64,000 nt of DNA, taken from positions 2,867-66,866 of the forward strand of contig JAKAKT010000090.1 in NCBI GenBank assembly GCA_021813385.1, read 5' to 3'. The stretch is from Candidatus Micrarchaeota archaeon. Its GTDB lineage: Archaea > Micrarchaeota > Micrarchaeia > Burarchaeales > JAKAKT01. Below the pieces are notes generated by a model. It did no database searches. It was given only the letters and a program-made list of their open reading frames with translations, and was not told where the DNA came from. This document shows, piece after piece, positions 1 to 56,700 of this stretch; the first letter of the stretch is position 1, and each line of letters opens with the position of its first letter. The translations under genes were made by a program, and so were the position numbers.

Positions 1-7
1 GCGGAGT

Positions 8-877
8 TTAGTTATCTCGTTCCGAAAGATTTACCCAGACTAAATAATGGTCGCTAATCGTTGTATTAATACCGGTTTTGTAAATGCCATAATCTACGAA
101 TTCCGAGGTAGCATTTCCGTTCAGAAGAATCCTATCGTAAGCGCAGTTTGTCGCGTGCACGGTCGTATCCGCGCCTTCTGGGATAACCCAGGTCCAATTC
201 TTGAAGTGGGTCCTATTGTTTTTTGGGTAGTAGCCGCAATCGGCATTCAAATCTCCTAACACAACAGTATTCTCGCTCGCGTTTACTATCGGTTCAAGGG
301 CGGCCAGCTCGGTAGGAACCGAATCCGGAGCCGTGTGAATGTTGTATACCCGTAACTGGTAACCATCCGTCTCAAAATCGACCTCAATAGGGGGCCTCTC
401 CCACCTGTCCTTCGGGTCAGGATTAAAGTCCCTGAAACCTACAAGTTTGATGTTTTTTCGATAGATAATGCCTATCTGCTCCTTGTTTGACGAACGACCC
501 GCGCGGCTCGAATTTATGCAATTGTGGGTTGGAATCCGAGCACATAACGCTGGAAATGCGCTACCGGTTTCATCGCGGATTTCCTGGACGAACGCAATGT
601 CGTAGGCACCCAATACCCGAGCATACGCCTCAAGCAAGGTCGCATTGGATGCCTTGTGTTGTCCGAATGCCTGGAGGTTCCAGCTAGCGAGGGTTATCGA
701 CCGAACAGAGGTAGAGTTTACAGAGACGTTGCGGACAGCTTCGCCCGGCTGTCTGATTTCGCTAACGTTGCGTGCTGGCTGCAAGAATACGTAAAGGACA
801 AGCACGATAACGAGCAGGAAAACAACCAAGAGTATAAGGTTTCTTGCTCGCAAGCGTTCACCATTGTTTTTCATCAA
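8..877 (-). CDS. DNase I-like (EEP superfamily) extracellular nuclease, N-terminal TM anchor
   Basis: Translation aligns by eye to bovine DNase I across the active-site blocks: SWNLQAFG vs NIRTFG, GDLNADCGYY vs GDFNADCSYV, IPEGADTTVHATNCAYDRILL vs IPDSADTTATSTNCAYDRIVV, ISDHYLVWV vs SDHYPVEV. Both catalytic His residues are conserved. A hydrophobic N-terminal helix follows a basic start. Confidence 0.8.
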   Translation of the reverse strand: MMKNNGERLRARNLILLVVFLLVIVLVLYVFLQPARNVSEIRQPGEAVRNVSVNSTSVRSITLASWNLQAFGQHKASNATLLEAYARVLGAYDIAFVQEIRDETGSAFPALCARIPTHNCINSSRAGRSSNKEQIGIIYRKNIKLVGFRDFNPDPKDRWERPPIEVDFETDGYQLRVYNIHTAPDSVPTELAALEPIVNASENTVVLGDLNADCGYYPKNNRTHFKNWTWVIPEGADTTVHATNCAYDRILLNGNATSEFVDYGIYKTGINTTISDHYLVWVNLSERDN

Positions 878-1532
878 TCTTGTTCCCGTTCTTATCGAAC
901 AGCGTTACAGAATCGTGAGTTTTGGCCAGATAAAGTTTGGTTGTTGCTCTCGTAGGATTAAACGTCGTTCCCTTGACGGACCATTCACTATTAGGTGCGA
1001 TGATGGTTCCTGCTGGTATCGTGTAAGTTCCTTCTCCATCTGTCAGTTGCCAGCCTCCGATATCTGCCCTGGAATTGCCAGAGTTACAGAGTTGTATCAG
1101 CTGGTCGTCGGACTTTACCCCGGTTGAAGGATTGTATACGACCTTGCATATCGTAACAGTTGGTGTTTGGGTCTCCGGATTAGTAGTATTCTGTAGGGGC
1201 ACAGGTTTTACTTCAGTTTGATTTGTCGGATTCGTGGTATTCTGCGGGAGCACGGGTTTTTCTTCGGTTTTGTTTGGCCCCAACTCGGTCGTGGTGTTTG
1301 GTTGTGGCACGGTTTTGTTTGCATCTGGAACCGGCGCATCTGGACGGATAGTATTCATAACGTTCGGAATTGATGTATCCGAATCAGTAGTGTTTTGCTG
1401 GGGCGATGGTATTACTTCAGATGGATTAACCCCCGACTCGGTTTTCGCGGTAGAATTGTTCGTGCAGCCGAAAAACAAAACGACGAGCAGCAACGATGCC
1501 AAAAGGAGGACTTTCGGAGCAACCGTTCTCAT
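858..1532 (-). CDS. secreted lipoprotein with Thr/Pro/Asn-rich linker and C-terminal lamin-tail (LTD)-like domain
   Basis: Signal peptide ending in FFGC (lipobox-like). Low-complexity linker with repeated KPVLPQNTTNPTNQTE / KPVPLQNTTNPETQT. The C-terminal block ICKVVYNPSTG...DDQLIQLCNSGNSRADIGGWQLTDGEGTYTIPAGTIIAPNSEW resembles an LTD. Overlaps the downstream DNase I gene by 20 nt, which suggests an operon. Confidence 0.55.
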   Translation of the reverse strand: MRTVAPKVLLLASLLLVVLFFGCTNNSTAKTESGVNPSEVIPSPQQNTTDSDTSIPNVMNTIRPDAPVPDANKTVPQPNTTTELGPNKTEEKPVLPQNTTNPTNQTEVKPVPLQNTTNPETQTPTVTICKVVYNPSTGVKSDDQLIQLCNSGNSRADIGGWQLTDGEGTYTIPAGTIIAPNSEWSVKGTTFNPTRATTKLYLAKTHDSVTLFDKNGNKIDEKQW

Positions 1533-1593
1533 TTAATGACCGTAGTTCTATTATGATACTAAAGTATAAATACTTACGCGTCTACAATAAATA

Positions 1594-1953
1594 TTGAGAG
1601 ACCAAAGTATCCTACGGGATACGGTGGTCTTATTGAATAAGAGCTACGAGTGGATTAGTTTGCTGGTTTCCGAGGGCACGCTGGAGATTTTGAAGTATCT
1701 CGCAGAGCGAGATGTGGGACACTTTAAGGAGCTACGGAGCCTCAAAAACTTTCGCACAAAAAGGAATTTTTCATCCAACACCATCTCGCTTCGAATAAAA
1801 GAACTTGTGGGTTATGGCGCAATAGAACGGACTATCTCTGACAGTAAGGGTCGGAATCTTGTTGCTTACAGGATAACCGATGCTGGGCGTAAATGTATAG
1901 AACTTGCTGACAAATTTGACGACGAACTTTCGGTGGTTTTGAAGAAAAAATAA
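1594..1953 (+). CDS. HxlR-type winged-helix transcriptional regulator
   Basis: 119 aa. The NTISLRIKELVGYGAIER segment matches the HxlR recognition helix/wing pattern (LSxRLKELEEaGli). First gene of a tightly spaced three-gene + strand operon. Confidence 0.55.
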   Translation: MRDQSILRDTVVLLNKSYEWISLLVSEGTLEILKYLAERDVGHFKELRSLKNFRTKRNFSSNTISLRIKELVGYGAIERTISDSKGRNLVAYRITDAGRKCIELADKFDDELSVVLKKK

Positions 1954-1957
1954 TTGC

Positions 1958-2443
1958 TTGAAGGAATTAGACATGACATATAATATATTCATAAGCTACA
2001 GCTCAAAGGACCTCGAAGAAGCGAACAAAATCAAAACACTTATTGACCAAATTCCAGATGCACGGAGTTTTTTGGCGGAAACAAATTTACTTGTGGGCAG
2101 CTTAAGCCAGAATATCATTTCTGCGATACAACGGTGCGACATATTTGTAGTTCTTTATAGCAAGAATTCGCACAATTCAAGTTATGTCCAGCAGGAGATA
2201 GGAGCTGCGCGAATGAGCAACAAGCTAATTCTTCCGATAGTTCTTGACCCAGAAACCAAGCCTGACGCAATGATAAAAGAAATTGGTTATCTCGCTTTCT
2301 ATGACTCAACAAAAAGGCATGAAGAAATGAAAAAACTATACGACCACATTCTAAACGGAGCCAGGCAAAAGGCAAACAATCAAACGGTTCTCGGGCTTGC
2401 GCTGCTTTTGGTTTTGGCTGGCATCGCATCTGAAAAACATTGA
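1958..2443 (+). CDS. TIR-domain protein with C-terminal transmembrane helix
   Basis: N-terminal YNIFISYSSKDLEEANKI is the classic TIR strand-1/helix-A start. SSYVQQEIGAA matches the TIR catalytic-Glu block (S-x-W/Y-C/V-x-x-E-L/I). C-terminal VLGLALLLVLAGIA is hydrophobic. A 4-nt gap separates it from the upstream regulator. Confidence 0.7.
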   Translation: MKELDMTYNIFISYSSKDLEEANKIKTLIDQIPDARSFLAETNLLVGSLSQNIISAIQRCDIFVVLYSKNSHNSSYVQQEIGAARMSNKLILPIVLDPETKPDAMIKEIGYLAFYDSTKRHEEMKKLYDHILNGARQKANNQTVLGLALLLVLAGIASEKH

Positions 2444-2450
2444 AGGTAAG

Positions 2451-3359
2451 ATGATGGGTAAATCTCGTAAAAAGTCAAGAGAGAAACGAGTTAAGATTAG
2501 CCAACTGACGTTCCCAAAACCAGAAAAGAACTTCGTCAATGCATATCGAAATCTCACGTATCAGCATGTTATTTCCGAGCTTAAGAAGATTGAATCCACG
2601 AAAAAGACCAAACCGCCTCAGTTTGAAGAAGAAAAAAAGTATTTGGTGCAGAGTTACTCATCACAAAGTCCAGACGAGATTCAGATTGAAGACGATGACG
2701 GCACGTATTTTCCAAAACCAATTCCCTTACCTTCTGCCTTGTTCGTTCAGTTTGCTGAACCGCACGTATTGATTACTGATTGGAGCGAGGACGTTAAATC
2801 GTGGTATCATTTCCAAGAGCTTATACAGGAATTGGAAAAGCAGGCCTTCGTTTCGTATTTCCAAGGCCTTTATTATGCTTGTTTCATGTGTTCGGTTGGC
2901 TGTCTGGAGTATATTATGAAATATGAATACATACGGAAAACGCATGATGAAAGTATCTTACAAAACCAAACGTTTGGAACGATGCTAAAAAAACTGACGG
3001 ACATCAATCTCGAAAAATACAGGGAGGATTTGGAACTTGTTAATGGGATTCGCAATGGATTTTTCCATCTTAACACTGACAAACTAAAAAATTCGATTGT
3101 CGAATTGAGGACAAAACGCTACAAAAATGTAAAAATTAATACTTTAGATATGGGGACAGACCGATTAACGACTCAAACGATGGATAGAGAATACCACAAA
3201 GATACATTCGACATTCCAGATAATAAGGACATGAGCAAAATCAGTCACCATGTTTACTGCCTACTTAACAAGATTACGAATGAGTTATATGGTCCGAAAC
3301 AGCAGGCCTCATTTATCAAAGAATGCATTAGAGACTATGAAACTCGATACATGGGATAG
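2451..3359 (+). CDS. hypothetical protein with putative HEPN (DUF4145/Apea-like) domain; basic N-terminus
   Basis: 302 aa. TFGTMLKKLTDINLEKYREDLELVNGIRNGFFHLN carries an Rx4H motif (R-N-G-F-F-H) in the context typical of DUF4145-type HEPN (L..iR..gN..aH). Lys/Arg-rich N-terminal tail. Start placed at ATG 2451, 7 nt after the TIR stop, rather than the overlapping 2397. Confidence 0.45.
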   Translation: MMGKSRKKSREKRVKISQLTFPKPEKNFVNAYRNLTYQHVISELKKIESTKKTKPPQFEEEKKYLVQSYSSQSPDEIQIEDDDGTYFPKPIPLPSALFVQFAEPHVLITDWSEDVKSWYHFQELIQELEKQAFVSYFQGLYYACFMCSVGCLEYIMKYEYIRKTHDESILQNQTFGTMLKKLTDINLEKYREDLELVNGIRNGFFHLNTDKLKNSIVELRTKRYKNVKINTLDMGTDRLTTQTMDREYHKDTFDIPDNKDMSKISHHVYCLLNKITNELYGPKQQASFIKECIRDYETRYMG

Positions 3360-3402
3360 GCACACAAATAGGAAATGGAGAGAGCACTATACGGCTTCCC
3401 GC

Positions 3403-4560
3403 TCAATAAAACGCTGTCTCCTCCTCGAAAATTTTTCCATCACTGGTGACGAATTTGAGTTTTAGGTAAGGTGTTTTCGAAGAATCAAGAGGACACCCAG
3501 ATAAGGAAAGCGAACCGAAGTTATATATTATGTCTTCGTGTTCGAAGCTTCCTAATCCCAACGTGGTGCGGGAGTAATCTTGTTTCTTAACGGTGAAAGT
3601 TTTAGTGCAGGAAGTCGTTTGAGTTTCATAAATTCCATAACCGGTCTTTTCTATTATGCTTATCGTTGCTGTTCCATCCGCTGTTGACGTAGAACCTTTT
3701 TCGTTTTGGAGAATAAAATATGCCGCCAATACATTTCCCTGTTTTGATGCGTATAATGTCTTTATTCCGGTTGGCGGGAAGATGTAATTTTTGAGTTGTA
3801 GGCAACTTTCTTTCATTTGACTGTTTGTTATTCGGTTACACGCATCCTCGTCGAATATCAGATTATTATTAACGGAATACGTAACGTAATTGGAGTAGCA
3901 AACATCCTTGTTGGTCACCTGGTCGTAATAACCTTTAGCTTCGTAACTAATCTCCCGCATCGTGCCGCAGATGAAATAGTTATTTCTTATAAACGCAACT
4001 CCGAGATAACAGTTTGACAAGTAATACGGGTCCATGATTTCGTCGCACACATCGGTATTATTTTTCTGAACCGCCATAGAGACGTATTTGCTGGTATAGC
4101 AGGCTCCTACCTCTTTTTCAATTTCGTCTTTACTCATCTTCTCGGAGTTGTAGAGGTTTATACACTTGTCTTTAGTGCAAAAACCCACGTAGCACGTCAT
4201 CCCTGTCCCACATGTTGTTCCGTTCAAGACTTCGTGCTTACACTCTAAACTCGTAGTCTCACAGTAATCGCGAGTGCAGAGGTTTCCGTCGTCACAGCTT
4301 TCCGGGCATTTTTTGCATTTGCTTATATCGGTGACAGTCGTGTTGTCTGGACACGTATATGTAGGGCATTTCGAGAGGTCCATAACCGAAGTGCCGTCAG
4401 GGCAGATATATGTTTTTTGGCATTCACTTAAGTTCTTGACAACGCTACCGTCCGGGCATTCGTAGGTTTTAATAGGTCCAGTAGGGGCTTGTTGTTGAGT
4501 TGAACAACCAAATATGCCAAACGCCAAGACCAGAACGGCGAGTAGGTAAAGTGATTTCAT
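3403..4560 (-). CDS. cysteine-rich secreted lipoprotein
   Basis: Signal peptide with FGIFGCS lipobox. Three tandem ~17-aa repeats Y-x-CPDG-x-V-x-x-LS-x-C. A CPESCDDGNLCTRDYC...CKHE module is shared with the 54499-56700 protein. Confidence 0.65.
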   Translation of the reverse strand: MKSLYLLAVLVLAFGIFGCSTQQQAPTGPIKTYECPDGSVVKNLSECQKTYICPDGTSVMDLSKCPTYTCPDNTTVTDISKCKKCPESCDDGNLCTRDYCETTSLECKHEVLNGTTCGTGMTCYVGFCTKDKCINLYNSEKMSKDEIEKEVGACYTSKYVSMAVQKNNTDVCDEIMDPYYLSNCYLGVAFIRNNYFICGTMREISYEAKGYYDQVTNKDVCYSNYVTYSVNNNLIFDEDACNRITNSQMKESCLQLKNYIFPPTGIKTLYASKQGNVLAAYFILQNEKGSTSTADGTATISIIEKTGYGIYETQTTSCTKTFTVKKQDYSRTTLGLGSFEHEDIIYNFGSLSLSGCPLDSSKTPYLKLKFVTSDGKIFEEETAFY

Positions 4561-5528
4561 GAGCGCACCTTTTTTGTCATTGCCTGGATAAGAACATAGG
4601 GCCGTAAACCATCGTCCACGGTGAAATATCTCAATTTCTCCCTATTCTTAACTCCAACAGCAATGTAATCCTTCCCAAAGTTTAGCGAGATTATTTCTTT
4701 CGGCAAGATTTGAATATTTTTGAAGCTTCCTCTAAACAGGAGCTTGCTGTTAGTTATGGATAAACTTCCGGCATCAAGTTGTTTTACCGAATGGGTCGGT
4801 TCCGATTGACCTTGTGACCCACCCAGAAATACTCCTTTTGAAACTCGGACCCCCGCGTAACCGGTTGAATAACTCCGGCCTACTCTCTCTTCGAGGAGGG
4901 CCGCTGATTCGGAGTAATAGACATTCTCGTCTTTTTCTAAAACGATACCTTGCGTGTTATCGATGGACTGAAAGGTCACGTTAAGGTCTATCTTATCGAT
5001 ACCGTCTTCTTTTTTGGATACCATTTCGTCTAAAATCTCGACGATAGGGTTGTTTTTTCCCTTTCCGAAAACAATGAGTTCGTTGGAATAGAAAACACGC
5101 CAATCGTATAAGGTTTCTTTAAAATTCTGGTTTTTTGTTTTTATTCTGAACTTATCTTGCCCGAATTCGCTTTTACCGATTGGGATATACTCGGTGTTAC
5201 AAACGGAACAACCGATTATCTGTTGACTCGTTAGCCCAAACAAGCCCTTTTTTGTCTGAACTTTTACCTGTCCTTCCTTACAAAAAACACATTTGTTAAA
5301 CAAGATTCCCTCGGGCATTTCTTTATCAGTTTGGAGTTTTACTGGGTTTGCCGAGGTTTCTTCAGGCGCGAGTGGCGTCAGAACCCTCCATTTATAAAGA
5401 AACCCGAAGATTCCCATGATAAACAAAACGAACCCGATGAAGATTGGAGCCGTAAGGAAACCGAATAATAAAAGCCACCAGCGATACTTTATTGCAAAAT
5501 TCTGTAATTTTGCAGACCCCTGATACAA
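4557..5528 (-). CDS. membrane protein with zinc-ribbon and possible PH-like C-terminal domain
   Basis: Two N-terminal TM helices, then CVFC...CSVC (zinc-ribbon spacing). C-terminal beta-rich region (SLSITNSKLLFRGSFKNIQILPKEIISLNF). 4-nt overlap with the upstream Cys-rich lipoprotein gene. Confidence 0.55.
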   Translation of the reverse strand: MYQGSAKLQNFAIKYRWWLLLFGFLTAPIFIGFVLFIMGIFGFLYKWRVLTPLAPEETSANPVKLQTDKEMPEGILFNKCVFCKEGQVKVQTKKGLFGLTSQQIIGCSVCNTEYIPIGKSEFGQDKFRIKTKNQNFKETLYDWRVFYSNELIVFGKGKNNPIVEILDEMVSKKEDGIDKIDLNVTFQSIDNTQGIVLEKDENVYYSESAALLEERVGRSYSTGYAGVRVSKGVFLGGSQGQSEPTHSVKQLDAGSLSITNSKLLFRGSFKNIQILPKEIISLNFGKDYIAVGVKNREKLRYFTVDDGLRPYVLIQAMTKKVRS

Positions 5529-5602
5529 TTGTTCACCCCACGTTAAAGTTAACGAAGTTTAAGGGTTTTAAGCTTTTAGCCTCTTCCGCGTTTGTGAGGT
5601 GT

Positions 5603-6151
5603 TCAGAAGGCGCTCGGTTCCGAGATATTCGACTTCATTAGTTTCTCGCGGATAGGCGACGGTAGGAAAAACAAGGTGGCAGAGCGGCCCAGCGCTTCCT
5701 CCCGTTTCGAAACCCAACCCAAGCCCACGAAGCCGTTCAGGACCCGGATTATTGTCGTATAGGCGGGTATCTGGACTCCGTCTTTCCTGTATCCCGCCAC
5801 TATTTCTTCCGCCTTGCGACGGTCTAAAGTCGCTAAATCGATTGTCTCCTTGTCGGTTTCTATGCTCGTGGAAGAAGGCTTTTTCGGCTTTTTTGCTGGG
5901 ATGAACATTCCCCCTGTTTCTTCTACCGGTATGGAACGAATGTTTGCGACGGTGCGCATACGAAGCTTGCCGTCCTCGTGGTCCCGGATTACGCGGGTGG
6001 CGAGCCTGAAGTAGACCTGCATCGAATTAATGGCGCAACGAGCGCTGTATAGCTCCCAAATAACCTGTTGCTCGATGTGAGCAAGCGCTTCCCATTGAAA
6101 CTCCGAAGGTTGTTTCGAGGTTGGATTCGATTCTGACGCTTTTTTGACCAT
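5603..6151 (-). CDS. hypothetical protein (island-associated)
   Basis: 182-aa ORF in the AT-rich island, divergent from the integrase. No recognisable motif. Confidence 0.4.
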   Translation of the reverse strand: MVKKASESNPTSKQPSEFQWEALAHIEQQVIWELYSARCAINSMQVYFRLATRVIRDHEDGKLRMRTVANIRSIPVEETGGMFIPAKKPKKPSSTSIETDKETIDLATLDRRKAEEIVAGYRKDGVQIPAYTTIIRVLNGFVGLGWVSKREEALGRSATLFFLPSPIREKLMKSNISEPSAF

Positions 6152-6447
6152 ATAAAACCCGTTTACTTTTGTATTGCATAGTATTTCATTAGATAGCCTT
6201 ATAAATGTTTACATTTATATTAGTTAACAGGAGACAACGCAACACAATGAAAGACAAAATATGCGAACGCTCCGGAAGTGATTGAGATGGATGACAAGGC
6301 CAAACTCTTGCCAAAAAGAAGAGAGAACCGGGAATTGTTTGTCGACAAAAGAACCCGCTTAAGCGCGGTAAGGAGATTTTGCGAAATGCATCGGATAAAC
6401 ATTCAGGAAACCGAGGATGTGCTCAAAATTTTCAAGTGAGGGAGAAG

Positions 6448-7674
6448 ATGACCAAGGCAAATATCTACGGAAAGGATTTCGAGAAGGAAGTCGAGAGAAT
6501 GCTGGGCACGTTGAGCGAAGCTAACAGGAAGCCGCTCATCGGATACGTAGAACACAATCGGCAGAGAGGCGTTACATTCCAGCGCTTATACAAGATTGTC
6601 ATTAACATAAGGACATTCATAAATCGCGGTCAGGTCAGGGATATCCGCCGGACCGACGCGGGGGCCGTGAAGGAATTCTTCAACAGCACCGAGTCGCAAG
6701 GCTGCTCGATTGAAACGCTGCGGGACTACAAGATTGTCCTTTCCGGGTTTTATCGCTGGCTTCACGGCATAAAAGGGCAAACGCTGCCCCCGGAAATGGA
6801 GTTCCTTGAAGGCAGGCAATTCAAACACGTCAAGAAAAGCGGACCGGTGCTCACGGAAGAGGACATAAGACGGATGATTGATGTCTCGCTTACGCTCCGG
6901 GACAAGTGCTTTATCACGCTCCTATGGGAATCTGGCGGGCGAATCGGGGAGATACTCGGGATGCAACGAAAAGACGTGCTGGCAGAAAACAAGGACAAAC
7001 GGGAATTCCGCCTTTATTTGGATGGGAAGACCGGCCCGAGGGAGATACTGGTAGTCGATAAGTGGGGATATGCCGACCAATACCTAAACGGGTTCGTTGG
7101 AGATAGCAAAACCTCCCTGTTTTGCACAAGACACCGCGCACACGCGACTTACCCCGCGTTCAGGAAAATGCTGACCGAGACGGCAAAACGGGCGGGAATA
7201 GACAAGAAAATCAATCCGCACTGGTTCCGCCACAGCCGGGCGACCTGTTTCGCGGAGGCCGGGATGTCCCCGATGCATATGGTCCCGTATATGGGCTGGT
7301 CCAACGGCACCAAGATGATTGGGACCTACACCCACCACTCGGCCCGCTCCGCAGATAATACGATTCGCTTGCTCCACTCGGACAACAGCGAGGAATTCAT
7401 GCGGAAGAACTTCGGCGAATTGGACAGTTGCGAAAGCAGGGCGAACCGCGTCGCCGAGGAAGAACTTCTCGACAGGTTCTTCCAAAAATACGGGGGCAGG
7501 ATAATCCAGCGGTTCGTCGAAAGCTATCAGGAGCTTGAAACCTACTCGAACGCGCCTTTAACAAATAAGAAAGATGCTCCGGCCGGGATTTTCAAACCCC
7601 TAGGTTTTCACCGTTTTTTCTTTGGGGTTGATCCAGACCTTTCTTTTTCCCAAAAAGAAAGGGAAGGATTTTGA
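6448..7674 (+). CDS. tyrosine recombinase / phage-type integrase
   Basis: HWFRHSRAT (HxxR box II) and TYTHHS (catalytic Tyr) lie near the C-terminus. Start chosen at MTKANIYG rather than the upstream M at 6379. A long C-terminal tail overlaps a tRNA on the opposite strand. Confidence 0.75.
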   Translation: MTKANIYGKDFEKEVERMLGTLSEANRKPLIGYVEHNRQRGVTFQRLYKIVINIRTFINRGQVRDIRRTDAGAVKEFFNSTESQGCSIETLRDYKIVLSGFYRWLHGIKGQTLPPEMEFLEGRQFKHVKKSGPVLTEEDIRRMIDVSLTLRDKCFITLLWESGGRIGEILGMQRKDVLAENKDKREFRLYLDGKTGPREILVVDKWGYADQYLNGFVGDSKTSLFCTRHRAHATYPAFRKMLTETAKRAGIDKKINPHWFRHSRATCFAEAGMSPMHMVPYMGWSNGTKMIGTYTHHSARSADNTIRLLHSDNSEEFMRKNFGELDSCESRANRVAEEELLDRFFQKYGGRIIQRFVESYQELETYSNAPLTNKKDAPAGIFKPLGFHRFFFGVDPDLSFSQKEREGF

Positions 7675-7763
7675 ACCCGGGTCACCGGCTCGATTGGCCG
7701 TCTAGCATGCCTTGGCATTCAAGACTGAGGCCGGAATCCTTGACCGGTCTAGACTACCGGAGC
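7575..7763 (-). tRNA. interrupted tRNA (identity uncertain); candidate introns in anticodon loop and T-loop, or att-site duplication
   Basis: Minus-strand sequence GCTCCGG-TA-GTCTAGACCGGTCAAGGAT-T-CCGGC-[40 nt]-GCCGG-TGA-CCGGG-TTCAAAATCC...[~64 nt]...GGGTTTGAAAATCCCGG-CCGGAGC-A. The 7-bp acceptor stem (GCTCCGG/CCGGAGC), anticodon stem (CCGGC/GCCGG) and T-stem (CCGGG/CCCGG) are perfect. The D-arm is plausible. The T-loop sequence is partially duplicated on either side of a ~64-nt insert. Confidence 0.45.
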
Positions 7764-7818
7764 AAACGCAGGTATTTTTGGCGACTCCGAGATTTAATAA
7801 GGTTTCGAAGCCGGGTTT

Positions 7819-8871
7819 TCAATAACCCGTGATCTGGTGACAGTTGGCCTTGATCTTCGAGTCGAGGATAGAACTGCATATCTGGGAGTCTTTCAAAAGA
7901 ACCGCAGTCTCCATGTAGCAGGCGTCCTTTGTGCCTTGGTGAGAGACTTTGGCGCAGGCTGAAGCCTGCTTGTTGTTAATTGCGAATTGCGTGTAGCAGA
8001 GGTCTTTTGGCGGAACAGTGTAGTGGAGGGCATTGTCTTGGCCCACTTTTTCGCATTCGGATGCATCAGAGACGACGGGAATCCCTGGGAACAGTGTCCT
8101 ACCGCCTCCAGCCAAAACATTCGCCCCTCCCTGGCTTGGAATCGCAGAAAGATAGGGGTCGATTGCTGCGAGGATAACGCCGATATACAAGCCCATGATT
8201 AACAGAATGGGCGTTATGATGACGATGAAAGACCTTAGCACGTCCATCTTGTGGGCAATCGAGATTGCGATTGTCTCAAGGTAAATGAAATAGAGCCCCA
8301 GACCGATTGGAACCAACATGCCGATTACTCCCCCGATACACGGAATGAAGGCCAGCACGATTTCAAACGGGACGAGTAAAACACCCAATACGAGTTGGAA
8401 TAAGATAATTATTGATAGCAGGCTTGCCTGCTTTCCGAAAGCGCCAGAACCGCCAAGAATCCTTGCAATGATATAGAGCACCGCGTTCCATAGGAGGAAC
8501 ATTATGATTCCTGCTAGCGGGTAGATTACGAGCACAAATACCCCGAGCCCTGCCAAAAGGACGCCCGTATTGCCTCCTGAACCCGTTACATTGACTTCTG
8601 AACGCATGGAATTAATCCACTCAAACAGGAAGGCGATTATGAGAAAAAATAATAAGACAACTACGAATAATCCGCCTGCCACCCTGACCAGGGCTTGTAT
8701 GATACTTCCCTCCTCGAGGTCGCTCTTGAACACCGCTCTCGGGTCAGTGAAGAGCCCGGTGAGCCAGAAAGGGGTGGAACGGGATAGCCTCTCTTCCTCC
8801 ACTGGCATCTTTCCGCCTTCAGGGCCCCAGAAGGTCATCTCAGGCATCTTCCCTTCATCGTTATCTTCCAT
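7819..8871 (-). CDS. multi-pass membrane protein (Yip1-like) with C-terminal Cys-rich extracytoplasmic domain
   Basis: 350 aa with ~6 hydrophobic helices and a Cys-rich C-terminal tail. Yip1-family assignment rests only on topology and general resemblance. Confidence 0.4.
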   Translation of the reverse strand: MEDNDEGKMPEMTFWGPEGGKMPVEEERLSRSTPFWLTGLFTDPRAVFKSDLEEGSIIQALVRVAGGLFVVVLLFFLIIAFLFEWINSMRSEVNVTGSGGNTGVLLAGLGVFVLVIYPLAGIIMFLLWNAVLYIIARILGGSGAFGKQASLLSIIILFQLVLGVLLVPFEIVLAFIPCIGGVIGMLVPIGLGLYFIYLETIAISIAHKMDVLRSFIVIITPILLIMGLYIGVILAAIDPYLSAIPSQGGANVLAGGGRTLFPGIPVVSDASECEKVGQDNALHYTVPPKDLCYTQFAINNKQASACAKVSHQGTKDACYMETAVLLKDSQICSSILDSKIKANCHQITGY

Positions 8872-9182
8872 GAGGTAATTTTTTTCTCCGGGAATTAATA
8901 AAGTTATGTAAAATGGGTTTGTTTTTTCGACGAAAAATGGCCCTTTAGAACTCCCACCAACAGTACTGCACCGTTGTGCGCAGCTCTGATGCTGTGCAGT
9001 CCGCTATCGGAGGCGGGCCTGCCCGTTCGAACGGGCATGCTGTTGCTGGTGGCGCTGCAAATGATGATTCTTACGGAGGAGCCGAGGTTTTGATTTAATT
9101 CTTAATATGATTAAAAAACGAATGTTTATATGCTGGTCTTTGCATAGTTATAGGGATCTAGCAAGCACTTGATAGTGATTGT

Positions 9183-9716
9183 ATGGCTTACAACGGGCCT
9201 GAACAGCGCAAAGCGAACTGGCCAATCGCAACTTTCAGAAAAATTGGCGAAACTAGTTTCGCCAAGCCAGAGGAAAGTGGGGGAGGGGTATGCCTGGAGT
9301 TTTCCCGGCGCTGCTACATGCTCGTAGAAACTGCTCGAACGCGACTGCGAGAGGACGTCAAAGGACTCGCGGATGGCAAAATCCCTGAGATTGAAGGGAT
9401 AGCCCGGGATGCGTCCGACATTCAAGCGGTTGTTTCAAAAGTTAGAATATTGTGTTCTCAGGTCAAGGAAAATTTGAAAGTTAGAAGAGACGACACGCTG
9501 GAATTTGTGTATAACCGAAGGAGCGGCAAAATTTACGCGATTATTGAGTATTCGACTCCGTACGAAGTGAATGTTGGGGCTTCCGAAGTTGGGGCCGTCG
9601 TGTCGCTTACTGGAGGACAAACGGTCTCTGCGAGTTTTATGCTTAAAGATGAAGATACCATAACCACATTGAAGGAACTTGATAGAATGCTGCCGTGTCC
9701 TAGAATTTCCGACTGA
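9183..9716 (+). CDS. hypothetical protein
   Basis: 177-aa ORF with no recognisable motifs. Upstream hairpin-rich GC island. Confidence 0.4.
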   Translation: MAYNGPEQRKANWPIATFRKIGETSFAKPEESGGGVCLEFSRRCYMLVETARTRLREDVKGLADGKIPEIEGIARDASDIQAVVSKVRILCSQVKENLKVRRDDTLEFVYNRRSGKIYAIIEYSTPYEVNVGASEVGAVVSLTGGQTVSASFMLKDEDTITTLKELDRMLPCPRISD

Positions 9717-9730
9717 TGCTGTTATTAAAG

Positions 9731-9761
9731 GACCATTTCCTTTTTTCGACGAAAAAGAAAA
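9731..9761 (+). promoter_or_regulatory. near-palindromic TTTTTTCGACGAAAAA element plus TTTAAATA TATA-like box upstream of the HNH gene
   Basis: The same CGACGAAAAA core occurs at 8922-8937 and 49522-49532, the latter directly abutting a TATATATA box. Confidence 0.35.
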
Positions 9762-9793
9762 CGTTTAAATACTGAAATCGATAAGTTAACTGA

Positions 9794-10150
9794 ATGCGGC
9801 CCAAGCGACCAGGGGCTGTGAAGCAGCTCTTAATGCTCATAGACGAGTTTAGGTGCCAGCGCTGCCATCTTGACCTATCTAAATTTCCAGAGCTTATACA
9901 ATTGCACCATATGATAGACCGCGAGATTCTCTGGCGGGCGAGGAGGGACGGGCTGCAGAGGCAGTTCCACGAGATGAGGAGAAACATCGAATACCAGCAG
10001 ATACTCTGCCCTGCCTGCCATGCGACAGTGCATGAATGCCGGGAAAGGAACTATTTCTTCCCGAACTACAACCTCAACACTTCTGGGAACAACGTGAAGC
10101 TCGCCCTCGACAGCCAGATGAGGATGAAAGTGAGAGTGAGGGAACGATAG
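9794..10150 (+). CDS. HNH endonuclease family protein
   Basis: CQRC ... LHHMIDRE ... N ... CPACHATVH: CxxC / HH / CxxCH arrangement of an HNH nuclease. TATA-like TTTAAATA about 37 nt upstream. Confidence 0.6.
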   Translation: MRPKRPGAVKQLLMLIDEFRCQRCHLDLSKFPELIQLHHMIDREILWRARRDGLQRQFHEMRRNIEYQQILCPACHATVHECRERNYFFPNYNLNTSGNNVKLALDSQMRMKVRVRER

Positions 10151-10206
10151 ATTCCCTCACCGAACACTATTTATATTTTTAAAGCGAAGTTTTTCATGGG
10201 GGAAAC

Positions 10207-11928
10207 ATGAAGCTTCTTTTCGAGGAACCGGCCTGCACAACCTGTGGCGCGTGCCTTTCCGTATGCCCAAAGAACCCGAAATCCCTAAACCTCTTGAAAT
10301 GCAGGCACTGCCCTCCTGAAAGCGCCGGCTGCAAGCCCGCCTGCCCGAGGGGCGCGATAAAGGAGTCGAACGGGTTCCTGTTTATTGATTCCGAGGAATG
10401 CGACGGGTGCGGGAAGTGCGCGAGGCAATGCTCAAAAGGCGCGATAGAAATCGTTGAGGATAAGGCAATCAAATGCGACGCCTGCCTCGGGAAGCCGAAG
10501 TGCATCGACTACTGCCCAGAGGAAGCGCTCAGGCTCCTCAAGGAAGAAGAGGGGATTCTCGGCTGGAGGGTAAGCGGGGAGAAGGCGGGATATTCCGTGG
10601 GGATACCACGGCTCTCGCGCGAGGAAGAGGGGATAGTTAACGAGATTTGCGCAAGATTCAGGGAAAACTCGAAGAAAGGCGAGTTCGGGGGCCGGGAGGA
10701 TGCGAAGTCCGAGCTTGAGGGAATTCTAACTGGTTATTGCAAGGATTCCGGGCTCATGATGGAAACCGACCAGTTCGATTACCTCTCGAAAATAACGCTG
10801 ATGCAGGTCTGGGGTTTTGGGCCGCTTGACCCAATGCTCGCGGATGACTCGCTCGAGGAAATTGCAGTCGTGGGGTTGGGAAAGCCGGTTTATGTTTATA
10901 AGCGGGGCGAAGGGTGGCTTGAGACGGATTGCTCTTTCACTTCCCAAGAGGTTTTTGTGAATACGGTAAATAAGATGGCGAGGCCCCTTGGAAGGAGGCT
11001 CGCCTACCAAACCCCGAGAATAAATTCCGTCCTGCCTGATGGCTCGAGGCTCCACGCATCGATGCCGCCAATATCGCAGCTCGAACTGACCATTCGTAAG
11101 TTCAGGGCCAATCCAATCTCTGCTCCAGAGCTCGTCTCGCTCGGGACCTTTTCCCCGGAGTCCCTCGCCTTCCTCTGGCTCGCGATGAAAGTGGACACCT
11201 CGATTCTTATCGCAGGGAACACGGCGAGCGGGAAGACGAGCACCCTCAATGCTCTCTTTTCCTTTATCCCGCTCGAAGAGCGCGTGCTCATCACCGAGGA
11301 GACCCCTGAAATAAACATACCGCATAAGCACAGGGTTTCCCTGCTCGCGAACACAGAACTCGGGATAGGGATGGGCGAGCTTGCTTCGGACAGCCTGAGG
11401 ATGAGGCCTGACCGGCTTATTGTTGGCGAGGCAAGGACTGCGGGGGAGGCAAAGGCGCTTCTGGATGCGATAACGAGCGGGCAGGCGAGAGGGAGCTATG
11501 CGACATTCCATGCGCACTCGGCGAAAGAGGCGGTCGCGAGGATGCGCGCTCTCGGCGCGCCTGAAACCGACATCGCGTCAATCGGGCTCATAGTGATACA
11601 GAAAAGGCTTGGGGGAAGCGACAAGGGCAAGGAAGCGAGACGGGCCCTCGAGATTGCAGAAGTGAGAATGAACGGGGGCGCTGTTGAGGCAATCACGATA
11701 TATGGATATGACTACAAGACCCGCTCGCTCAAGAGGACCAAGAATCCTTCCGCAGTGGAGGAAGAGGTCATGAATGCTCTCGGGTTTGACGGGAAAATGC
11801 TCAAGAAAGAGCTTTCAGACAGGTCGAAATTCCTATGTGGGCTCGCCAAGAGGAAAACGGGCTTTTTCGAAACAGTCGTCGCAATACAGAACTATGACAG
11901 GCTGCTGGGGGGATGGTTTGATAGATGA
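10207..11928 (+). CDS. type IV pilus/archaellum-family secretion ATPase (FlaI/TadA/PilB-like) with N-terminal tandem 4Fe-4S ferredoxin domain
   Basis: Walker A GNTASGKTSTLNALF, then ITEETPEI and the GEARTAGEA His-box region typical of GspE/FlaI ATPases. The N-terminal ~110 aa hold four Cys clusters: CTTCGACLSVCP, CRHCPPESAGCKPACP, CDGCGKCARQC, CDACLGKPKCIDYCP. Confidence 0.8.
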   Translation: MKLLFEEPACTTCGACLSVCPKNPKSLNLLKCRHCPPESAGCKPACPRGAIKESNGFLFIDSEECDGCGKCARQCSKGAIEIVEDKAIKCDACLGKPKCIDYCPEEALRLLKEEEGILGWRVSGEKAGYSVGIPRLSREEEGIVNEICARFRENSKKGEFGGREDAKSELEGILTGYCKDSGLMMETDQFDYLSKITLMQVWGFGPLDPMLADDSLEEIAVVGLGKPVYVYKRGEGWLETDCSFTSQEVFVNTVNKMARPLGRRLAYQTPRINSVLPDGSRLHASMPPISQLELTIRKFRANPISAPELVSLGTFSPESLAFLWLAMKVDTSILIAGNTASGKTSTLNALFSFIPLEERVLITEETPEINIPHKHRVSLLANTELGIGMGELASDSLRMRPDRLIVGEARTAGEAKALLDAITSGQARGSYATFHAHSAKEAVARMRALGAPETDIASIGLIVIQKRLGGSDKGKEARRALEIAEVRMNGGAVEAITIYGYDYKTRSLKRTKNPSAVEEEVMNALGFDGKMLKKELSDRSKFLCGLAKRKTGFFETVVAIQNYDRLLGGWFDR

Positions 11929-54498: not shown

Positions 54499-56700
54499 TC
54501 ATTTAACGTTGTAGCAGTTCTCGCCCTGCTTCGCCCCAGTAACGCCATAGCTAACGACACAGGTCATGTTATAGAATTGGTTGTAGTAAATCTCTGAAGT
54601 GCCAGAGAACGCGCCATCCCATGCGGTCTCTGTCCTGTTGGCATGGCACCACCAGTTCCCAATGAGTATGTCCCCCCGGTAATCCTCTATGCCGGTTATA
54701 GTATAGTCGCGTCCATCGAAGCGCTTCGTAACCCCTGGGACACAATAGAACTGGAAGCAGTATGGGCCCCTCCACGATGTATCATACGTGACGTTGAAGC
54801 GGAGGGTTTTTGCGTATAAAATTTCGCCTTTTTCAATCTCATACCCGCCATAACCGAAGAGCACGAGCTTCCTTTCCACCGTGTCCTTCGCGTAGAGGTC
54901 GCCGAATGCGCCGCTCATTGTCGCAATGCAATCAACTGACGAATGGGCTGCAGCCCTGCAGGTGGAATCTGCCTCAGACCGCAGCCTGAGCGCGCCTTCA
55001 GCAAAGACCGTCATGGGCTCATTGAGCGGGTTGTTTATCCTCACCCGGACGATATAGTTCTCGCAGTTGAATGTCGAGTAATACTTGGGCTCGTCCGAGA
55101 GGAAAAACGCGTCAGCATCAAGCGGCTTATAAGTCGAGGAGCATGTTCCGCAGTCCTGTGGGCAAGAGAAGCACTCTTCCCCGCTTTCGCAGAACCCGTT
55201 CCCGCAGCAGCCCTTAAGGGCTACGATTGCGCACTCGCCGTCTAAGCAGGTCTTCTGCTTGCAATTGGAAGGAGGGGGGAGTATCTTGAACCCTTTAATT
55301 GCCGAGTCGAAGAGCAAATAGTCCCTGTCGTACGACCCTCTTAGGGCGGTGTACTCTAGCTTGTATGCCCGGCCTTTTCTGTAGGATATCACGGTCTTTT
55401 GCTTGATGGGAAATCCCTGGCTAACGAAGCTGACTGCATAATATTTCGCCGCATTGCCATCGAGGGTTTGGTCGCCCGAGTCCAGGAGCGAATAGCCGGA
55501 AACGTTTCCGACTTGGGAAAGCGATTCGCTGACATAGTCGCCAAGCAGGTATGTCGGGACCGTGGGCATGAGGTATACGGCTATGCTTGGCAGGAATGGT
55601 TCTTTCTGGCATCCGCGCCAGGGGAATAGCCTGAACTTCACTGGGTCGTATTTTTGCTTGGTCTCCACAAACCCGAGCATGTATGTCCTGCCTTGATAGA
55701 TGAAATATTGGTGGGTTTGCGCCTCCGGCTCCCATTCCCCGGACCTGTTCGAGAATCCTGTTATATGGAGTGTTATCAACAGGTCATCGACGTTCTTTTT
55801 CTCCTCATATCCGAACGTCATGTTGACCATTGTTGCACCGAGCAGCGTTATCTCTGAGCCTGAGCCTGATGCAAAAACGATGTCCGCTTTCACTTCGTCA
55901 ACGAATTCGGTCCCATGGTAACGGATTGGAGCGATGAGAACATAGGCGGCTGAGCCGGGGTCGGAAGTCTTGTTCGATATTTTGAAAACCAGGCCGTTGA
56001 AGGCATCCGTAGTCTGCGGATTGCCGACGACCGGGAAGATTGAATAGCCGTTGATCACATCGGTATAGAGCCCGTCTTCGAAATACGACCCCTCGGAACA
56101 GTTCTGTTTCTCCTCCGGCCCTAGAAGAAGCACCCCTCCCTCGTTCTTCTTTGAATCCTCATCAAGTCTCCAGCTTTCAGGCACGTTGGTCCCGAACATG
56201 TATTTTACATTAGAATACCCCGGGAAATCGGTGTAGCCTGAACATCCGACCATGTTTTGGCTCCTTCCGTTGTGGGTGCAGTTGAAACCGGTTTCTGGAC
56301 CGCACGCATCCAGGGTGCATGGATTCCCATCGTCGCAGTCAGGCGGGCATGAGCCACAGTCACCAAGGCAGTTGTCGCGATTCTCCCCGCTTTCGCAGAT
56401 TCCATCCCCGCAGCAAGGAATCTTCACCGTGTGGCTGCATTCGTAGCCCGTGTCCTTGCCGCACTTGTCGATGGTGCATTTGTTCCCATCGTCGCAGCTT
56501 GACGGGCAGAGGTCCGCCTCGCATAGGGTTGGGTCCAGAACAATCGTCCCGTCGGGGCATGTGAAGTTCTGGGTGGGGGTGGAATTGGTCGTGTTTGTTG
56601 TGTTTGGTTGAGGCCCAGGACCACCGCCGCATCCTAAAAGCAAAACTGAACAAAATAGTAACAACGCCAATTTTTTCATGATAATTGTTAATGCGAGCAT
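54499..56700 (-). CDS. large cysteine-rich secreted lipoprotein
   Basis: Signal peptide ending LLGCGGG. Repeated CPxxCDDGNxCTxDxCG...C.H and CCG(D/N)G(I/F)CESGE modules. 733 aa. Paralogous modules occur in the 3403-4560 protein. Confidence 0.65.
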   Translation of the reverse strand: MLALTIIMKKLALLLFCSVLLLGCGGGPGPQPNTTNTTNSTPTQNFTCPDGTIVLDPTLCEADLCPSSCDDGNKCTIDKCGKDTGYECSHTVKIPCCGDGICESGENRDNCLGDCGSCPPDCDDGNPCTLDACGPETGFNCTHNGRSQNMVGCSGYTDFPGYSNVKYMFGTNVPESWRLDEDSKKNEGGVLLLGPEEKQNCSEGSYFEDGLYTDVINGYSIFPVVGNPQTTDAFNGLVFKISNKTSDPGSAAYVLIAPIRYHGTEFVDEVKADIVFASGSGSEITLLGATMVNMTFGYEEKKNVDDLLITLHITGFSNRSGEWEPEAQTHQYFIYQGRTYMLGFVETKQKYDPVKFRLFPWRGCQKEPFLPSIAVYLMPTVPTYLLGDYVSESLSQVGNVSGYSLLDSGDQTLDGNAAKYYAVSFVSQGFPIKQKTVISYRKGRAYKLEYTALRGSYDRDYLLFDSAIKGFKILPPPSNCKQKTCLDGECAIVALKGCCGNGFCESGEECFSCPQDCGTCSSTYKPLDADAFFLSDEPKYYSTFNCENYIVRVRINNPLNEPMTVFAEGALRLRSEADSTCRAAAHSSVDCIATMSGAFGDLYAKDTVERKLVLFGYGGYEIEKGEILYAKTLRFNVTYDTSWRGPYCFQFYCVPGVTKRFDGRDYTITGIEDYRGDILIGNWWCHANRTETAWDGAFSGTSEIYYNQFYNMTCVVSYGVTGAKQGENCYNVK

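Follow-up and report, generated by a model that had tools for sequence, protein, structure and literature searches.

The stretch analysed here is a 64,000-nt (64 kb) piece of contig JAKAKT010000090.1 from a Candidatus Micrarchaeota archaeon; it is referred to below as the window, and all coordinates are counted from its first letter. Between 1594 and 3359 it carries three open reading frames (ORFs) that run in one direction and encode a small winged-helix protein (gene 1, 1594–1953, 119 amino acids (aa)), a TIR-domain protein with a hydrophobic tail (gene 2, 1958–2443, 161 aa) and a HEPN-type protein (gene 3, 2451–3359, 302 aa). An earlier note on this DNA had described three co-directional genes separated by 4 and 7 nt, and these are indeed the intergenic gaps when the longest-ORF starts are used. 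Public gene calls on identical contigs, together with the family alignments, place the likely start of the TIR gene at the ATG at 1973 (156 aa) and favour 2454 for gene 3 (301 aa); the gene calls also favour 1624 or 1633 for the winged-helix gene (106–109 aa). The real gaps are likely to be ~19 and ~10 nt, and the trio is compact under either set of starts. As the earlier note had also claimed, the trio is richer in AT than its surroundings: the GC content is 0.37–0.41 across ~1500–4000 compared with 0.46–0.58 in the flanks on either side.

Gene 2 (1958–2443, + strand; likely start ATG 1973, 156 aa) is, judged from its profile matches, a bona fide TIR protein at the superfamily level. Pfam TIR_2 (PF13676) covers residues 10–127 with E=9.6e-16 and 58.8 bits against a cut-off of 28, Pfam ThsB_TIR matches with E=3e-7 (31.1 bits, cut-off 21.2) and the PADLOC ThsB model (PDLC00436) with E=1.4e-8. 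The family to which it belongs has 47 members of ~155 aa from DPANN, methanogenic archaea and various bacteria, with F11, S13-Y14-S15, G47 and an S-x-x-V-x-x-E-I-G block as its invariants. This block lies in SSYVQQEIGAA, where the catalytic glutamate of a TIR domain had been proposed; the assignment holds, as Glu80 (codon 2195–2197, + strand), the predicted catalytic residue, is invariant in the alignment of 41 family sequences. Moreover, the best solved relatives of the family profile are the SARM1/TIR-1 NAD+ hydrolases (E=3.5e-8), and Glu80 is aligned to the glutamate of SARM1 'WVHKEI' and of TIR-1 'WVHKEL'. The former we take to be the catalytic Glu642 of SARM1. Gene 2 is predicted to cleave NAD+ or to make an NAD-derived product via Glu80. 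At its C-terminus, residues 143–158 (2384–2431, + strand) form a hydrophobic segment, TVLGLALLLVLAGIAS, of 16 uncharged residues with a mean Kyte-Doolittle hydropathy of 2.64 over 15 residues. In the family the uncharged run has a median of 16 residues, occupies the equal position in 39/41 members and is followed by 2–4 polar residues, which is consistent with a predicted tail anchor or transmembrane (TM) helix. Of the single C-terminal TM helix proposed earlier, the conserved uncharged tail stands, but 16 residues are short for a membrane span.

Gene 3 (2451–3359, + strand, 302 aa) comprises an N-terminal region of ~115 aa and a HEPN domain (~residues 117–300). The protein has no match in Pfam (E<=1), PADLOC or NCBIfam. 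A word-indexed search of 5.8e9 proteins returned three relatives only, an exhaustive profile search of 1.84e9 representatives yielded 40 family members, and no relatives were found in viral contigs. In the 40-sequence alignment W118, Y136, E153, K157, E159, R201, H206 and Y269 are conserved in at least 90% of the members. Two pairs among these form the motifs E153-x3-K157 (2907–2921, + strand), which corresponds to the Ex3[KR] motif of the first HEPN helix, and R201-N-G-F-F-H206 (3051–3068, + strand), an Rx4H motif and predicted RNase active site that is invariant in the closest 12 members. The segment GIRNGFFHLN, in which the earlier note had seen this motif, is present, with R201 at nt 3051–3053 and H206 at nt 3066–3068. 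Ex3[KR] together with Rx4-6H are the sequence hallmarks of catalytic HEPN domains, and the role of Rx4-6H in HEPN RNases has been described (Anantharaman et al. 2013, PMC3710099). AlphaFold2 run on the 40-sequence alignment gave a model of gene 3 with pLDDT 91.3 and pTM 0.85, superseding one built on a 3-sequence alignment (pLDDT 50.7), and the model has the four-helix up-down HEPN fold. Structures given alongside it are ST0689, TT1696, HI0074, the HEPN domain of AbiA and Csm6, with LsoA, Roquin and AbiV further down. Membership of the HEPN superfamily, as had been proposed for gene 3, is thus supported by the fold and by the conserved Rx4H and Ex3K motifs, and the protein is predicted to be a metal-independent RNase whose composite Rx4H site would form on dimerisation.

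The placement of gene 3 in a DUF4145/Apea-like context did not survive. Both belong to HEPN, have RNxxxH-type motifs and frequently lie within restriction-modification (R-M) operons (PMC3710099), as do relatives of gene 3. However, gene 3 matches neither DUF4145 (PF13643) nor Apea-like (PF18739) at E<=1, DUF4145 is absent from the families matched by the 40 members at E<=0.1, and Apea is matched by 3/40 with a best E=0.028, below significance. Pfam HEPN (PF05168) is matched by 4/40 members (best E=0.012) and the PADLOC AbiV model by 5/40 (best E=8e-5), the window protein itself being unmatched by AbiV. Neither sequence search of the PDB gave a significant match: the 40-sequence profile returned 'Dandelion-hepn' (E=0.12), a name for which a full-text search found no literature description, and the 3-sequence profile returned influenza PA (E=0.075). 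On profile evidence gene 3 is the founder of a small HEPN family outside the models of Pfam, NCBIfam and PADLOC. It is unlike the MNT-associated or classical HEPN proteins (AF0298 2hsb, HepT 5yep/7ae2/8xdj, sacsin HEPN), to which it shows 9–13% identity, having no MNT partner and no match to PF05168. Similarly, it differs from AbiV, a lactococcal HEPN RNase of a type III toxin-antitoxin (TA) system, in failing to match the AbiV model and in its extra conserved N-terminal ~115 aa.

In the AlphaFold2 model this N-terminal region is made up, at high confidence, of two helices and extended segments. It contains a conserved ...FPKxIPxP...AEPHVLITD... stretch, in fuller form EDDDG-x-YFPK-x-IP-x-P...AEPHVLITD, upstream of the HEPN core (window 2688–2783, residues ~80–110), where conservation of E103, P104 and H105 reaches at least 90% in the closer homologs. 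The stretch, confidently modelled as extended segments, could be a second catalytic or an autoinhibitory element. The modelled fold of the region is none of CARF, SLOG, SAVED or Macro, and no Pfam or NCBIfam domain is found in residues 1–115. A Lys/Arg-rich segment that had been noticed ahead of the HEPN motif is present as the N-terminus of gene 3, but it is not conserved in homologs. We note that four family members (P0057, P0062, P0072 and P0074) carry an extra N-terminal domain (residues ~80–165) with its own E-x3-K and Q-R-N-N-x-x-H motifs and are probably tandem-HEPN proteins by these motifs; hhalign placed RNNxxH of this domain on RNGFFH of the HEPN core, but not significantly. One family member has an N-terminal SLFN/AlbA_2 domain.

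Gene 1 (1594–1953, + strand; 119 aa from the TTG at 1594) encodes a small winged-helix DNA-binding protein by sub-threshold Pfam matches, all under the curated cut-offs: HTH_34 (E=6e-5, 23.5 bits against a cut-off of 27), PadR (E=0.01) and HxlR (E=0.014). On these scores a winged helix-turn-helix (wHTH) label is fair; the more specific HxlR-like assignment of the earlier note is not established. No homologs of gene 1 were found beside TIR-family or HEPN-family genes at other loci.

To place genes 2 and 3 in context we surveyed the neighbourhoods of both families. For the TIR family they comprised 80 genome loci, six contigs carrying its two nearest relatives and four loci from three further relatives; for the HEPN family they were 25 metagenome loci and the loci L001, L005, L120 and L121. 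The only recurrent neighbours of the HEPN family are the type I R-M proteins HsdS (9 loci), HsdR (9) and HsdM (7). The HEPN-family gene directly follows hsdM in L001 and L102 and directly follows hsdR in L105–L109 and L112; the homolog P0002, 64% identical to gene 3, lies between hsdM and hsdS, and P0081 closes an N6_Mtase/Methylase_S-DUF2779 operon. Stand-alone members occur among housekeeping genes in L005 and L121. The TIR family shows the same association, with hsd genes at 21/86 of its loci; these cases cluster in the nearest relatives and include 11/20 of the closest genome loci and 6/6 contigs of P0005 and P0006, the relatives that are 77–78% identical to gene 2. In P0005 and P0006 the start of the TIR gene overlaps the end of hsdM by 11 nt, and HsdS is the sole recurrent downstream neighbour of the family (10/40). 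Two further TIR-family loci, L124 and L125, also contain R-M operon genes. The defence role that had been suggested for the trio gains contextual support from this recurrence of both families in type I R-M operons. In the papers covered by a full-text search, no account of a type I R-M operon with an embedded TIR gene was found.

The pair of TIR and HEPN genes is a different matter. It is confined to contigs of the source organism itself. Searches by blastp and hidden Markov model (HMM) covered 3.5 kb around each of the 80 TIR genome loci and the six contigs that carry the two nearest TIR relatives, and detected no HEPN-family gene there; nor did ~27 HEPN-family loci contain a gene for a TIR protein with the C-terminal hydrophobic segment (TIR-TM). 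Over the whole survey, 86 TIR loci and ~29 HEPN loci, neither family stood next to the other. A conserved TIR-HEPN pairing was rejected on these two-way searches, and with it the dedicated TIR-TM/HEPN system that the earlier note had proposed: in our survey the homologs never co-occur at other loci. Reading the trio as a new TIR-HEPN system is tempting; it lacks the backing of co-occurrence. The sole TIR near a HEPN-family gene is that of an unrelated, convergent 1018-aa TIR-NACHT(STAND)-TIR protein 0.9 kb away (L101 4377–7436, - strand). This setting, for which L100 4231–7032 is given as a second region, resembles a defence island that has no connection to R-M.

Comparison of the hsdM junctions points instead to substitution. 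In L001 HsdM is followed by the HEPN homolog P0002, and in L116/L117 by the TIR homolog P0006. The HsdM proteins of L001 and L116 show 96.2% identity and their hsdM genes 91.4% DNA identity over 1519 nt, and the homology stops 7 nt into the passenger gene (L001 5682–8097 compared with L116 4491–6471 / L117 1–1867). Both P0002 and P0006 start with ATGACAT within the hsdM stop region. Since either passenger can be found behind HsdM proteins of 96% identity, the TIR and HEPN families look like alternatives rather than partners, that is, alternative cassettes of one hsdM slot. In the window the closest known relatives of the two cassettes stand in tandem, and a tblastn search of its 64 kb found no hsd genes, remnants or pseudogene fragments.

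Taken together, we favour, with a probability of roughly 55%, the reading that genes 2 and 3 are two independent single-gene passenger effectors behind a small winged-helix regulator. Each family normally travels by itself, as a passenger of type I R-M operons, its start typically overlapping the end of hsdM or the gene being placed just after hsdR, and at one hsdM junction TIR and HEPN can substitute for each other. By analogy with the anticodon nuclease PrrC, each protein may be a latent toxin that aborts infection, the TIR protein by depleting or cleaving NAD+ at the membrane and the HEPN protein by cleaving RNA at a dimeric Rx4H site. The toxin might be set off when the first-line R-M defence fails or when a virus is sensed directly; in R-M operons it would probably form a second line that is freed once restriction is blocked, as with PrrC. 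In the source genome both cassettes stand in tandem with no hsd gene inside the 64 kb, and the wHTH protein probably controls their transcription. What the data show are the folds, the conserved catalytic residues, the residence of relatives in R-M operons and the exchange of cassettes; the enzymatic activities, the abortive outcome, the trigger and control by the wHTH protein are inferred.

PrrC/EcoprrI, the anticodon nuclease of a type Ic R-M operon, resembles relatives of gene 3 in being a HEPN-type RNase gene among hsdM, hsdS and hsdR. HEPN families in R-M operons and the guardian logic of PrrC have been described (PMC3710099, PMC12707154), and a latent second-line toxin of this kind is the best available model. 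Gene 3 is without the N-terminal ABC-ATPase domain of PrrC (no Pfam or NCBIfam match in residues 1–115) and represents another HEPN family, PrrC offers no counterpart to the TIR passenger, and unlike a PrrC-type guardian the window copy lies outside an hsdMSR operon, with its relatives inside such operons.

Several points weigh against the two-passenger reading. The window is without hsd genes, and therefore an R-M guardian mechanism cannot act locally unless an R-M system is present elsewhere in the genome. The tight tandem and the shared upstream regulator could mean that the TIR and HEPN proteins cooperate here. R-M operons may be mere insertion hotspots whose passengers are functionally uncoupled from them, and among the more distant, bacterial TIR-family loci the majority lack hsd genes. 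As to the proteins, the 16-residue tail of gene 2 is short for spanning a membrane, sequence profiles of gene 3 reach known HEPN families only weakly, and a Foldseek search of its model against the PDB was not significant, the top match being the HEPN defence protein HepS (E=0.34).

The gene 3 family and the compact TIR-plus-tail family are candidate single-gene defence effectors, both mostly from poorly studied archaea (DPANN and methanogens). To our knowledge few defence systems are known experimentally in these groups. TIR enzymes are common in defence, and R-M-embedded HEPN nucleases, including PrrC, ApeA and DUF4145, are already known (PMC3710099). What is new is a HEPN family outside current profile libraries, a minimal and putatively tail-anchored TIR family whose closest members sit at the hsdM-hsdS junction, direct evidence of a TIR/HEPN swap at one junction and an R-M-free tandem of both in an archaeon. 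The hsdM junction offers a concrete and testable example of modular 'plug-in' effectors of type I R-M operons and extends the PrrC paradigm to a TIR enzyme. A bolder form of the proposal, which we regard as doubtful, holds that the short junction after hsdM, in a lineage of type I R-M operons, is set aside for the exchange of 'guardian' effectors, whose translation would be coupled to that of the methylase and which would fire once restriction is blocked. The TIR-TM and HEPN families would then be two unrecognised guardian classes, and the window an R-M-independent, wHTH-controlled dual-effector module for abortive infection in an archaeon, perhaps even with a TIR signal coupled to the HEPN protein.

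Such coupling can also be put forward in its own right. The TIR protein would sense infection and make an NAD-derived nucleotide, as ThsB does, which would bind the N-terminus of gene 3 and activate the HEPN RNase in the manner of Thoeris or of the CARF-HEPN protein Csm6, with the wHTH protein as regulator. The adjacency of two co-directional genes ~10 nt apart, the fit of gene 2 to the ThsB models, the conserved N-terminal ~115 aa of gene 3 with its invariant-like EPH motif and the occasional fusion of DUF4145 HEPN to TIR (PMC3710099) are all in keeping with this, as is the sharing of R-M operons by TIR-TM genes and other HEPN proteins in L114 and L124. We nonetheless consider this unlikely. 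The pair is found in the source organism only, with no co-occurrence in the surveyed loci of either family, the two families alternate in one slot, and the N-terminus of gene 3 does not resemble the Rossmann-like CARF, SLOG, SAVED or Macro domains. Gene 2 has the fold and catalytic glutamate in common with Thoeris ThsB, other bacterial TIR defence enzymes and the SARM1-type TIR NADases. Thoeris itself differs in that no ThsA-type effector (SIR2/SLOG or Macro-TM) is found among the window neighbours by Pfam or PADLOC, gene 3 being a HEPN protein instead; gene 2, with its 156 aa, is also minimal and ends in a hydrophobic tail, and the usual home of its family is the hsdM-hsdS junction.

Equally improbable, in our estimate, is that the two genes have no current antiviral role and are what remains of the cargo of a type I R-M operon that decayed or was rearranged, or else a toxin-type addiction module that stabilises the AT-rich island, with the wHTH protein or one of the two proteins neutralising the other. 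The absence of hsd genes from the 64 kb, the low GC relative to the flanks and an integrase gene 3 kb off are in keeping with this; HEPN proteins are often the toxins of TA systems (PMC3710099), as AbiV is in a type III system, and stand-alone members of the gene 3 family are found among housekeeping genes. However, all three ORFs are intact with all catalytic residues kept, and no hsd pseudogene fragments flank the trio. As to an antitoxin, Pfam reveals none of the MNT type. An RNA antitoxin of AbiV-like tandem repeats was considered and rejected: no such repeats were found near gene 3, the only tandem repeat in window 1–8000 being a 26-nt low-score array at 6232, and the intergenic spaces are 4–19 nt. 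Nor does the C-terminus of the wHTH protein show significant similarity to the C-terminus of HsdM; derivation of the 3′ end of the wHTH gene from that of hsdM was dropped after shuffle tests against six HsdM sequences (p 0.03–0.9, not significant). A resemblance of the 16 nt 5′ of the TIR ATG to the hsdM end of L116 was not recovered by a local-alignment shuffle test on the whole upstream region and is not relied on.

Finally, a housekeeping role, with the TIR-TM protein in membrane-associated NAD or nucleotide metabolism or signalling and the HEPN protein as an RNA-processing or RNA-binding factor, has precedents in non-defence HEPN and TIR proteins such as the MtlR and GlnE-type HEPN (PMC3710099) and in the many distant TIR-family loci without obvious defence neighbours, but is highly unlikely given that both families are sporadic (40 representatives of the HEPN family among 1.84e9 proteins) and strongly tied to R-M operons, and that cassette swapping and atypical composition are hallmarks of accessory defence genes.

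The R-M operons that harbour the two families hold further passengers. Those of the TIR family contain SLFN/AlbA_2-HATPase_c_4 proteins, YhcG/DUF1016 nucleases, KilA-N, DUF5677 and MNT-HEPN pairs. In L124 (3005–10519) a single type I R-M operon consists of hsdM, a DUF1016_N fragment, TIR-TM, hsdS, a 295-aa protein of unknown type, MNT, a classical HEPN, a second MNT and hsdR, so that several toxin-type passengers are stacked in it, beside two DDE transposases. In L114 (2612–4540) the gene next after the closest TIR-TM relative encodes an HsdS with a 295-aa N-terminal extension that scores near the Pfam HEPN (PF05168) threshold (21.0 bits against 22, E=3.9e-4) and may be a HEPN-HsdS fusion. A family of large proteins without Pfam match, represented by L001 9415–11778 (787 aa) and L106 6660–8941 (adjacent ORFs of 133 and 627 aa), recurs in type I R-M operons, where it sits either in the hsdS-hsdR interval or behind the HEPN-family gene; L108 and L109 have a 732-aa protein, also without Pfam match, in the equivalent position, with no similarity to the L001/L106 proteins detected. 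Between TIR-TM and hsdS in L117 (1872–2969) and L118 (1007–2104), loci of the closest TIR relatives, lies a gene for a 365-aa multi-pass membrane protein without Pfam match. Upstream of the hsdM-TIR-TM operon of L116, positions 1633–4480 encode PDDEXK_4, a Csa3_N/HTH protein and an Mrr_cat/DUF8426 nuclease, a dense defence neighbourhood, and 174–1613 encode a tubulin-ankyrin fusion protein in the opposite orientation.

Ahead of the trio in the window we can read a TATA-box-like A/T-rich element, AAAGTATAAATAC, at 1561–1574 (+ strand), upstream of the wHTH gene, and a second TATA-like element, CAATAAATATT, at ~1585–1595, which together are a predicted archaeal promoter. A perfect 6+4+6 palindrome, GTATCCTACGGGATAC, at 1607–1622 (no strand assigned) sits around the alternative wHTH starts, just downstream of a TATA-like element and ahead of the likely start. 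It is a plausible operator candidate for the wHTH protein, although one palindrome of such a size carries no compelling statistical weight.

A tyrosine recombinase (integrase) gene lies at 6379–7674 (+ strand; Pfam Phage_integrase E=1.3e-20), 3 kb from the trio, and a link between the two is not demonstrated. The earlier note had called this integrase tRNA-adjacent. The integrase is there, but ARAGORN found no tRNA genes in the 64 kb, an Rfam scan gave zero matches at gathering thresholds and no tRNA fragments in 1–10500 at E<=1, and no convincing attachment-site (att)-like direct repeats flank the region; a tRNA/att-bounded integrative island was rejected accordingly. The remaining window is archaeal and chromosomal in look, with genes for AglB/STT3, NrdD, a P-type ATPase and a glycogen debranching enzyme. 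Directly upstream of the trio, on the - strand, an Exo_endo_phos nuclease/phosphatase with an N-terminal TM or signal segment (8–877) and a lamin-tail-domain (LTD) protein (858–1532) are encoded in overlapping frames and may be a secreted nuclease pair. Cys-rich, lipoprotein-like proteins with Dictyostelium-type CTDC repeats are encoded at 3403–4560 and at 54499–56697, both on the - strand, the former within the AT-rich stretch and convergent to gene 3.

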